Source: a virus (taxonomy: Duplodnaviria; Heunggongvirae; Uroviricota; Caudoviricetes). From it: a stretch of DNA of 12,369 bases. Shown piece after piece: positions 6,442 to 6,821 of this stretch; the first letter of the stretch is position 1; every line of letters starts with the position of its first letter. The DNA lies in IMG/VR virus record IMGVR_UViG_2923323785_000002, positions 1-12,369 of that record. One strand, written 5' to 3'. The translations under genes were made by a program, and so were the position numbers. The notes under the pieces were generated by a model. It was not told where the DNA came from. It made no database searches and saw only the letters and a list, made by a program, of their open reading frames with translations.

Positions 6442-6582
6442 ATGAAGGTAAAAACACTGCGTATGCCAGAGAAGTTAGAAAAAATCCTTGAAGAGAAAGC
6501 AAAGGAAGAGTGTCGCTCATTTAGCGCAGAAGTAATTAAACGGGTGATGGATAGCCTGAAGAGAGAGGGGATAACGGTATGA
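6442..6582 (+). CDS. arc: Arc-like ribbon-helix-helix repressor (46 aa)
   Basis: Resembles P22 Arc (RSFSAEVIKRVMDSLKREG vs RSVNSEIYQRVMESFKKEG); GGAG 6 nt upstream; below the ORF-track size cutoff, found by manual translation. Confidence 0.75.
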   Translation: MKVKTLRMPEKLEKILEEKAKEECRSFSAEVIKRVMDSLKREGITV

Positions 6583-6821
6583 GCTTTATAACCCTAACTA
6601 AAACAAAGTTTGAAAGCAGAAGGACAAGTGATTGGTGGCGGATTAGATTCGAAAAAAACAAAACGACATACACCATAAGACGCCAAAACATTGAGTTGGT
6701 AGAGGGCGCAGGTGACGATTGTGCGCTTATTACATTAACTTCTGGCAGAAAAATTGAGGTTGACCAGTCAGTAGAGCATGTATCTGGATTTTTACTCGGA
6801 CAAGCCGGACAAAAAAGTTGA
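6579..6821 (+). CDS. Hypothetical protein (80 aa) between arc and ant
   Basis: ATG overlaps the arc stop (ATGA); ends at the intercistronic terminator hairpin; no recognisable motif. Confidence 0.5.
   Translation: MSFITLTKTKFESRRTSDWWRIRFEKNKTTYTIRRQNIELVEGAGDDCALITLTSGRKIEVDQSVEHVSGFLLGQAGQKS

Follow-up and report, generated by a model that had tools for sequence, protein, structure and literature searches.

ORF80, a conserved small reading frame between arc and ant in the immI region of a P22-like prophage

ORF80 and its surroundings in immI

The DNA considered here, called the window below, is the whole of a 12,369-nucleotide (nt) stretch (positions 1 to 12,369 of IMG/VR virus record IMGVR_UViG_2923323785_000002, Caudoviricetes) and carries a prophage with an immI module of the phage P22 type. 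Between the repressor gene arc and the antirepressor gene ant lies ORF80, an open reading frame (ORF) of 80 codons, which is the subject of this work. The elements immediately around it are the following.

6442-6582, plus strand: arc, 46 amino acids (aa), Arc family (Pfam Arc, E=2.9e-9)
6565-6570, plus strand: Shine-Dalgarno-like motif GAGGGG within arc, 8 nt 5' of the ORF80 ATG, by sequence inspection
6579-6821, plus strand: ORF80, putative cargo cistron of 80 codons, with ATG at 6579 and TGA at 6819-6821
6810-6851, minus strand: sar terminator, a 14-bp stem (6851-6820) followed by a T-run (6819-6810)
6816-6883, minus strand: sar antisense RNA, Rfam RF00262, full length, 81.2 bits (gathering score 43), E=4e-17
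6885-7814, plus strand: ant antirepressor gene, 309 aa (Pfam P22_AR_N, E=2e-44; P22_AR_C, E=5.5e-30)
6891-6919, minus strand: Psar promoter-like site, TTGATA-17-TATACT, 10/12 matches, with TG, within the first ant codons

The ORF80 product has 80 aa, 9.2 kDa and an isoelectric point (pI) of 9.4, and its frame has exactly the coordinates given in an initial annotation of this DNA. The start codon shares four bases with the arc stop codon (ATGA, 6579-6582), and such an overlap, as ATGA or GTGA, is always present in the homologues. Together with the suitably spaced Shine-Dalgarno-like motif, it is consistent with translational coupling of ORF80 to arc, as the initial annotation had proposed. The last approximately 45 nt of arc, encoding ...MDSLKREGITV, are common to all cassette-bearing alleles in the allele alignment, and the 29 nt before the cargo start are conserved across nearly all cassette types.

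The length of ORF80 alone is no evidence of coding, since in the window 97 codons of an antisense frame are open as well; the evidence is conservation. Homologues with 95% (P0001) and 85% (P0002) protein identity occupy the same position in Salmonella prophages, and the +0 frame is the only one open in all ORF80 variants. Comparison of the window with the 85% variant gives 15 synonymous changes over 52.5 sites and 15 non-synonymous ones over 187.5 sites, hence a ratio of non-synonymous to synonymous rates (dN/dS) of 0.22-0.24 (Fisher p=2e-4). ORF80 is under purifying selection. Clustering at 90% identity places it in a group of 26 members, which come from E. coli, E. albertii and S. enterica, among them the subspecies arizonae and diarizonae; a single variant occurs on at least 1,000 contigs, and 13 distinct full-length variants keep the blocks RRTSDWWRIRF, GDD, ALITLTSG and SVE invariant. 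In Salmonella and E. coli, ORF80 is found intact behind three arc alleles, one P22-like, one of the 46-aa E. coli type and one of a third type, all of which share the C-terminal ...MDSLKR(E/D)G(I/V)TV. The ant gene that follows is of two types, its product beginning with a P22_AR_N domain in one and with KilA-N in the other. The upstream arc flank is less conserved than ORF80 (70% identity in the nearest 60 nt, 44% in the next 80 nt), which fits a cargo moving between backbones.

Outside this group the protein is isolated. A word-indexed search of 5.8 billion proteins returned just two clusters at least 85% identical to ORF80, and an exhaustive phmmer search of 1.84 billion representatives returned its own cluster and three long proteins, nothing else. 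The three long proteins, matching the K/R/T-rich N-terminus in multiple stretches, are regarded as compositional. A tblastn search of 50,697 phage records gave no real match in cultured phages.

That ORF80 is not a gene, its frame being open by chance in a variable spacer or left over from a decaying sequence, is extremely improbable. Such an origin would agree with its occurrence in just one of 656 E. coli genomes bearing the interval, with the lack of a PHROG at E<=0.01, of a cultured-phage match and of a Pfam match above threshold, and with the open antisense frame in the window. It is contradicted by purifying selection, by a frame kept across 12% DNA divergence, by conservation exceeding that of the arc flank and by a profile match to a real domain family (see below). 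The antisense ORF itself (6536-6829, minus strand) was dismissed, its frame being interrupted in a homologous locus (L068). On this sequence evidence ORF80 can be taken as a genuine, conserved small protein-coding gene.

The 3' end of ORF80 coincides with sar. The ORF80 TGA is the foot of the sar stem, the sar 3' end overlaps the stop codon, the T-run (AACTTTTTTG) falls within the last ORF80 codons, and the last codons CAA AAA AGT are complementary to the U-tract of sar. sar is complementary to the ant ribosome-binding region (ant ATG at 6885), and the predicted Psar start agrees with the sar 5' end at 6883. In the consensus scan the T-run after the 14-bp stem is present on the minus strand only and belongs to sar, so the hairpin is not the terminator of the arc-ORF80-ant transcript. 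The initial annotation, in which ORF80 ends at 'the terminator hairpin', is to be corrected on this point: the terminator is that of minus-strand sar. A plus-strand terminator at the ORF80 end is ruled out by the missing plus-strand T-run. The hairpin also folds in the plus-strand mRNA according to fold prediction, where its mirror-image stem is part of the sar target, and Pant transcripts must continue through it into ant.

Further elements of the region bear on expression.

6085-6342, minus strand: mnt-like repressor gene, 85 aa, Arc/ribbon-helix-helix (Pfam Arc, E=3.3e-10; phrog_795, E=3.4e-27), divergent from arc
6383-6411, plus strand: Pant promoter-like site, by consensus scan
6393-6365, minus strand: Pmnt promoter-like site, by consensus scan, overlapping Pant (both within 6365-6411)
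7993-9828: tailspike gene, 3' of ant

In P22, Mnt represses Pant in lysogens, Arc shuts Pant soon after infection, and transcription from the late promoter runs through immI as well (PMC12111858). Upstream of ORF80 the consensus scan found Pant as the only plus-strand promoter-like site, and none between arc and ant, in agreement with the immI control suggested initially. Since ORF80 has no plus-strand promoter or terminator of its own, it would be the middle cistron of the Pant transcript. The possibility of a moron had also been raised. ORF80 is indeed accessory, being present or absent at the same position among close relatives, where other content may replace it. The promoter and terminator of its own that a classical moron would carry are lacking in the consensus scan, hence ORF80 is better described as operon cargo under predicted Pant/Mnt/Arc control.

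The arc-sar slot and its cargoes

The interval between arc and sar/ant is a slot that holds at least eight interchangeable cargo families in P22-like (Lederbergvirus) prophages. These are ORF67, ORF73, ORF57, ORF74, ORF89, ORF80, ORF63 and ORF60; they are mutually unrelated and share their start, on the arc stop codon, and their stop TGA. An ATGA or GTGA start is found in every family. Alignment reveals four allelic states of the slot with identical flanks. E. coli relatives whose arc and sar/ant flanks are 96-98% identical to those of the window lack ORF80 and have other content in the slot: no cargo in strain MB46, a 73-codon ORF in strain LR-24 and in phages Emek and vB_EcoP-611R6, and a 67-codon Cys-rich ORF in STEC346 and CUS-3. 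Absence from close relatives with otherwise identical immI regions had been named beforehand as an argument against ORF80. Such absence does occur, and ORF80 is replaced there by other intact ORFs in the same slot, which points to cassette exchange and not to a spurious ORF.

Scanning IMG/VR for the 3' end of arc followed by ATGA gave 59 loci, in which 66 sites were inspected. An intact ORF follows at 55 of the 66, every one ending on the same TGA of TGAAGCCCC; at the other 11, ORF67 is frameshifted to 10 codons (MSKECCFLRH, then stop). A second scan, for the hairpin, gave at least 139 usable sar-bearing sites; the counts from it are those of a sample, among the matches listed. The P22-type state, with the arc stop 6-7 nt before the TGA, accounts for 46 sites, arc ending on the TGA itself for 14, and a 12-codon remnant state for 5. 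Cargo is present at 74 (ORF67, 26; ORF73, 14; ORF57, 11; ORF80, 8; ORF74, 6; ORF89, 6; ORF60, 2, one of them truncated; ORF63, 1). The slot flanks occur in 656 of 5,426 complete E. coli genomes, where the cargoes are ORF67 (372), ORF57 (93), ORF73 (51), ORF74 (23), ORF89 (14) and ORF80 (1). The single ORF80 copy is that of strain PSS-11, annotated as hypothetical protein WP_040079796.1; ORF80 is thus among the rarest cargoes in E. coli, and it is widespread in Salmonella.

Several observations concern other slot contents. ORF67 (e.g., NZ_CP019777.1, 2614796-2614976) carries no annotated feature in the top records. In phage CUS-3 the 'bsq2 boundary sequence' (L001, CP000711.1, 2603-2943) holds an unannotated 46-aa arc and a coupled 67-codon Cys-rich ORF67; the epsilon34 paper (PMC2629481) describes CUS-3 as having no arc. 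ORF60 is a bona fide zf-C4_ClpX zinc finger (PF06689, E=4e-11, 43 bits), ORF63 and ORF67 share phrog_5259/7150 with it, and ORF74 has a weak match (E=0.0015). The ClpX-zinc-finger-like cargoes (loci L105, L090, L001 and L015) could be mimics of the ClpX N-domain co-expressed with Ant.

The stop position is also notable in the hairpin sample. At 134 of the 139 sites an ORF of at least 40 codons, either arc or cargo, stops 0-7 nt from the hairpin foot, and the C-terminal Lys codon or codons of the ORFs upstream of sar are the complement of the sar U-tract. The remaining five sites have the 'empty' MB46-type allele, in which arc stops 35 nt short of the hairpin. This allele (L005, 1380-1420; L076) keeps a GTGA-coupled mini-ORF of 12 codons, MIRLDAAKKSKQ, ending on the same TGA, and resembles ORF57 (MIRLDA...MLDAAKKSKQ, phrog_17642) deleted between the short direct repeats CTTGGATGC and CTTGATGC.

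A role in cis, in which translation up to the foot of the sar-target hairpin matters and the protein is secondary or irrelevant, would account for this regularity. Ribosomes would cover the gap between arc and ant, preventing Rho polarity, open the hairpin, and tune sar pairing and ant translation. The stop within 0-7 nt at 134 sites and the mini-ORF at the other five agree with it; the cargo ORFs are mutually unrelated, and frameshifted ORF67 (11 loci) and frameshifted ORF80 variants persist. This explanation is nevertheless distinctly unlikely for ORF80, in which the dN/dS of 0.22 and the invariant protein blocks reveal selection on the amino-acid sequence. In addition, P22-type alleles reach the same stop position by arc alone, with no need of an extra ORF, and a recombination joint within the sar terminator explains the shared stop equally well.

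The ORF80 product and the SwrD/FlbD family

Two segments can be distinguished in the ORF80 protein.

6603-6656, plus strand: basic Trp-containing insertion TKFESRRTSDWWRIRFEK, ORF80 residues 9-26, placed relative to FlbD by MAFFT
6657-6785, plus strand: SwrD/FlbD-like core, ORF80 residues 27-69, by hhalign

The charge of the protein is polarised, residues 1-37 having pI 11.4 (ten Lys/Arg, two Trp) and residues 38-80 pI 4.4. Within the insertion, RRTSDWWRIRF is invariant in 13 of 13 distinct variants, and the insertion is modelled with low confidence as a beta-hairpin in both AlphaFold2 (AF2) runs.

The initial annotation saw no recognisable motif in ORF80, which proved too strong a statement. 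Three ORF80 variants match Pfam FlbD (PF06289), with 19.5 bits and E=7e-4 for the window, 21.1 bits and E=2.4e-4 for P0001, and 15.0 bits and E=0.019 for P0002. A reference alignment of 120 FlbD proteins, collected with a consensus-like probe and all carrying precomputed PF06289 annotation, was compared with the ORF80 family by hhalign, giving 87.9% probability, E=3.2e-6 and 37% identity over 41 columns. In the MAFFT alignment, ORF80 SFITLTK falls on FlbD strand 1 (MIKLTRL) and is followed by the 17-residue insertion; the rest is in register with FlbD, except that the strand 3-4 loop is longer by two residues. Thus ORF80 I38, E39, E42, D46, G56, K58 and V61 correspond to FlbD I19, E20, E23, D27, G35, K37 and V40. 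The conserved SwrD set, N15-x3-[IL]19, E20, E23 and P26-D27-T28, was taken from PMC13232269 and from the invariant columns of the reference alignment. An AF2 model computed with the FlbD-based alignment, as a monomer, has the SwrD order of elements, with a predicted local distance difference test score (pLDDT) of 61 overall and 71-80 for residues 31-70. NCBI and a COG-based source name some ORF80 copies as FlbD/YlzI family.

Several results weigh against this assignment. All Pfam FlbD scores are under the 24.7-bit gathering cut-off, and the invariant SwrD residues N15, P26 and T28 are unmatched, being aligned with ORF80 R34, G45 and A49; an Asn of ORF80 (N37) lies three residues from the N15 column. 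AF2 on the three-sequence ORF80 family alone gave pLDDT 45 and was unusable, and the model from the FlbD alignment is alignment-driven and partly circular, hence informative for element order only. Foldseek against PDB found no match at E<=0.001, with PH-like, LytTR and Sac7d folds at E>0.05. The MotA and CheD partners of SwrD are predicted and not validated (PMC13232269), and with no validated SwrD partner or molecular function, no function is transferable to ORF80. With moderate confidence, ORF80 can be described as a divergent protein of the SwrD/FlbD fold with a lineage-specific basic insertion, which falls short of strict family membership.

Other searches add little. Foldseek against BFVD gave many weak matches to phage proteins of 60-100 aa (best E=7e-3, template modelling score 0.5-0.6), several of them named flagellar/swarming protein and one being N4 gp27. 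In PHROGs there was no match at E<=0.01, and relaxed settings gave only a weak one to phrog_7594 (E=0.011); PADLOC and NCBIfam returned nothing meaningful for ORF80. The best PDB sequence matches, a chemokine and the CENP-C motif (E=0.17 to 1.2), were treated as chance. ORF80 residues 5-25 (6591-6653), TLTKTKFESRRTSDWWRIRFE, do resemble the eukaryotic CENP-C motif TVTKSRRISRRPSDWWVVKSE in an arginine anchor and WW (Pfam CENP-C_mid E=0.078; PDB E=0.34 to 1.2); the resemblance is almost certainly fortuitous, yet it lies in the invariant part.

SwrD forms hexameric rings and resembles the DNA-binding proteins RemA, ComK and LytTR without having their DNA-binding motifs (PMC13232269, a 2026 preprint). 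It is therefore conceivable that ORF80 is a nucleic-acid-binding ring protein like RemA, LytTR or ComK that serves as an additional regulator, either of immI or of some resident prophage, with DNA operators or the sar/ant RNAs as targets, for example. The structural nearness of these folds (PMC13232269), the LytTR domain 3d6w among the weak PDB fold matches, the N-terminal half of pI 11.4 with its invariant Arg/Trp segment and an operon composed of DNA-binding repressors agree with such a role. It is unlikely, given that SwrD lacks the RemA/LytTR DNA-binding motifs, that the ORF80 insertion lies between strands 1 and 2 and the RemA one between strands 3 and 4, and that the P22 circuit works without ORF80.

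A functional analogue of FlbD/SwrD, acting on the host flagellar motor (MotAB stator) during infection, is very unlikely. Apart from the sequence and profile similarity to FlbD, it could be argued from the lowered motor torque of B. subtilis on loss of SwrD and from MotA as a high-scoring in-silico partner (PMC13232269). SwrD is absent from Escherichia, however, and neither E. coli nor Salmonella has its own FlbD (PMC13232269); key SwrD residues are not conserved in ORF80, and the gene context is an anti-immunity operon, not motility. In every copy inspected, ORF80 sits between arc and ant of a prophage immI operon and not in a flagellar operon.

Interpretation and comparison with known systems

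ORF80 is probably a genuine exchangeable cargo cistron inside the Pant operon of immI (arc-X-ant). Its product would be made only when Pant fires, in a burst soon after the phage DNA has entered the cell or whenever Mnt is lacking; late transcripts that read through the region may contribute, and ORF80 would be silent in the stable lysogen. Recombination within the conserved 3' end of arc and within sar/ant would carry the cargo between immI backbones. The product would be a small, probably oligomeric binding protein; with 9 kDa and no catalytic motif, it is not expected to be an enzyme. During the antirepressor burst its binding partner may be an acidic one, nucleic acid or else a protein of the host or of a prophage, and the product would be dispensable for the Mnt/Arc/sar/Ant circuit itself.

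Some observations speak against this explanation. The frameshifted ORF80 variants P0129 (64 aa, 7 contigs) and P0130 (70 aa, 5 contigs), found on 12 contigs in all, have their N-terminus in the +1 frame and have lost the basic insertion, so the gene can be lost. Moreover, ORF80 may be idle in the window, where the prophage is a deletion remnant with an intact immI module. The 589-codon ORF at 3257-5026 is a chimera with its junction near 4100: residues 1-281 correspond to the N-terminal portion of a DnaB-like helicase, and the remainder, residues 282-589, has 100% identity with the last 308 residues of a gp16-type ejection protein from an intact relative. The nin, lysis and virion genes are missing as a result of this helicase/ejection-protein fusion; immI, the tailspike gene and the integrase gene are retained. 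The same remnant is present on at least 15 further contigs.

The remnant lies between a permease gene and an integrase gene. On the right (9968-11361) a P4-type integrase with an Arm-DNA-bind_3 domain adjoins tRNA-Arg(CCT) and a gene of the formate/nitrite-transporter family, and on the left (1-1248) there is a LacY-family, CscB-like permease gene; the attachment site looks like argW. The ORF at 2110-2322 (minus strand) encodes a Cys-rich protein of 70 aa with a weak Pfam match to Lar restriction alleviation, and is also seen in a homologous locus. The ORF at 1778-1978 (minus strand; 66 aa) has no family match on record and is AlpA/excisionase-like by eye only. The ORF at 5719-5904 (plus strand) encodes a 61-aa coiled coil, whose weak PADLOC matches to PbeC/JetC (E=8e-4) are probably compositional.

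A more far-reaching form of the cargo explanation, and a fairly unlikely one, is that the arc-sar interval is a dedicated exchange bay for small effectors fired in the early, self-limiting antirepressor burst, with ClpX-zinc-finger-like and SwrD/FlbD-like proteins among its occupants, and that ORF80 is a ring-forming effector of the SwrD fold. The invariant basic Trp hairpin would then have a specific target in the host or a resident prophage: nucleic acid, the MotA stator, or a component of defence or immunity. If so, ORF80 would be the first SwrD-like protein acting outside flagellar operons, in FlbD-less bacteria.

Public annotation already lists ORF80 as a hypothetical protein, with the FlbD family named for some entries. 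The literature searched yielded no report of a cistron lying between arc and ant, and the exact slot architecture and its cargo repertoire seem undescribed. The immI region of P22 is a textbook circuit in a region known as variable, and a slot with fixed start and stop is not described in that literature; among the matches listed, about half of the sampled sar-bearing immI regions have an extra cistron. If the cargoes are early-burst effectors, they are compact, swappable candidates for anti-immunity, anti-defence or host-takeover functions, and they could offer a way, from the phage side, into the SwrD/FlbD fold, which is still unexplained. Should they be tolerated passengers, the result is a routine refinement of annotation. 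The slot is ordinary in kind, with a modestly interesting architecture, and makes a tidy experimental system.

Among known systems, SwrD/FlbD (PF06289; B. subtilis YlzI, B. burgdorferi FlbD) shares with ORF80 the size class, profile similarity over approximately 41 residues, and a predicted succession of strands, 3-10 turn and helix that is the same in both. ORF80 differs in its 17-residue basic insertion, two extra loop residues and short C-terminal helix, and in belonging to a prophage immunity operon of bacteria without FlbD. The orf73 cargo of Salmonella phage Emek and Escherichia phage vB_EcoP-611R6 (phrog_11805) has the same slot, ATGA start and TGA stop as ORF80, and a weak in-register FlbD-like signal, N23-x3-I27-E28 (Pfam E=0.025, hhalign E=0.0036). 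It occurs in cultured phages, whereas ORF80 is without a match in the 50,697 phage records. A single ORF80-ORF73 family is not claimed, the direct comparison (BLASTP E=8.6; hhalign E=0.01 at 4% probability) being suggestive only.

Like other ATGA-coupled phage cistrons, ORF80 has a four-base overlap and a Shine-Dalgarno motif inside the upstream gene; its coupling is read from the DNA alone. The interval between gene 16 and the tailspike gene of P22-like phages has ten types in sixteen genomes and contains genes of unknown function (Villafane et al. 2008, PMC2629481). This 'ant moron' region (PMC2629481) resembles the present case as a hypervariable interval between these two genes in related phages. 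It is described there as whole-gene content, and a fixed arc-sar slot with shared start and stop is not mentioned.

The closest comparison is with immI of P22. The window has mnt, arc and ant in the P22 order and orientation, both repressors matching Pfam Arc and Ant matching P22_AR_N and P22_AR_C, and the divergent mnt and arc, with overlapping promoter-like sites, are laid out as in annotated P22. sar is matched over its full length, the hairpin sequence TGAAGCCCC...GGGCTTC is identical, and in both cases the upstream gene stops at the foot of the hairpin. The difference is that P22 has no cistron between arc and sar, its arc (53 aa) ending with TAA 4 nt before the same hairpin, so that the initial annotation was correct in calling the ORF extra relative to P22. 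The arc of the window, with 46 aa, ends approximately 240 nt earlier, and ORF80 occupies the gap.

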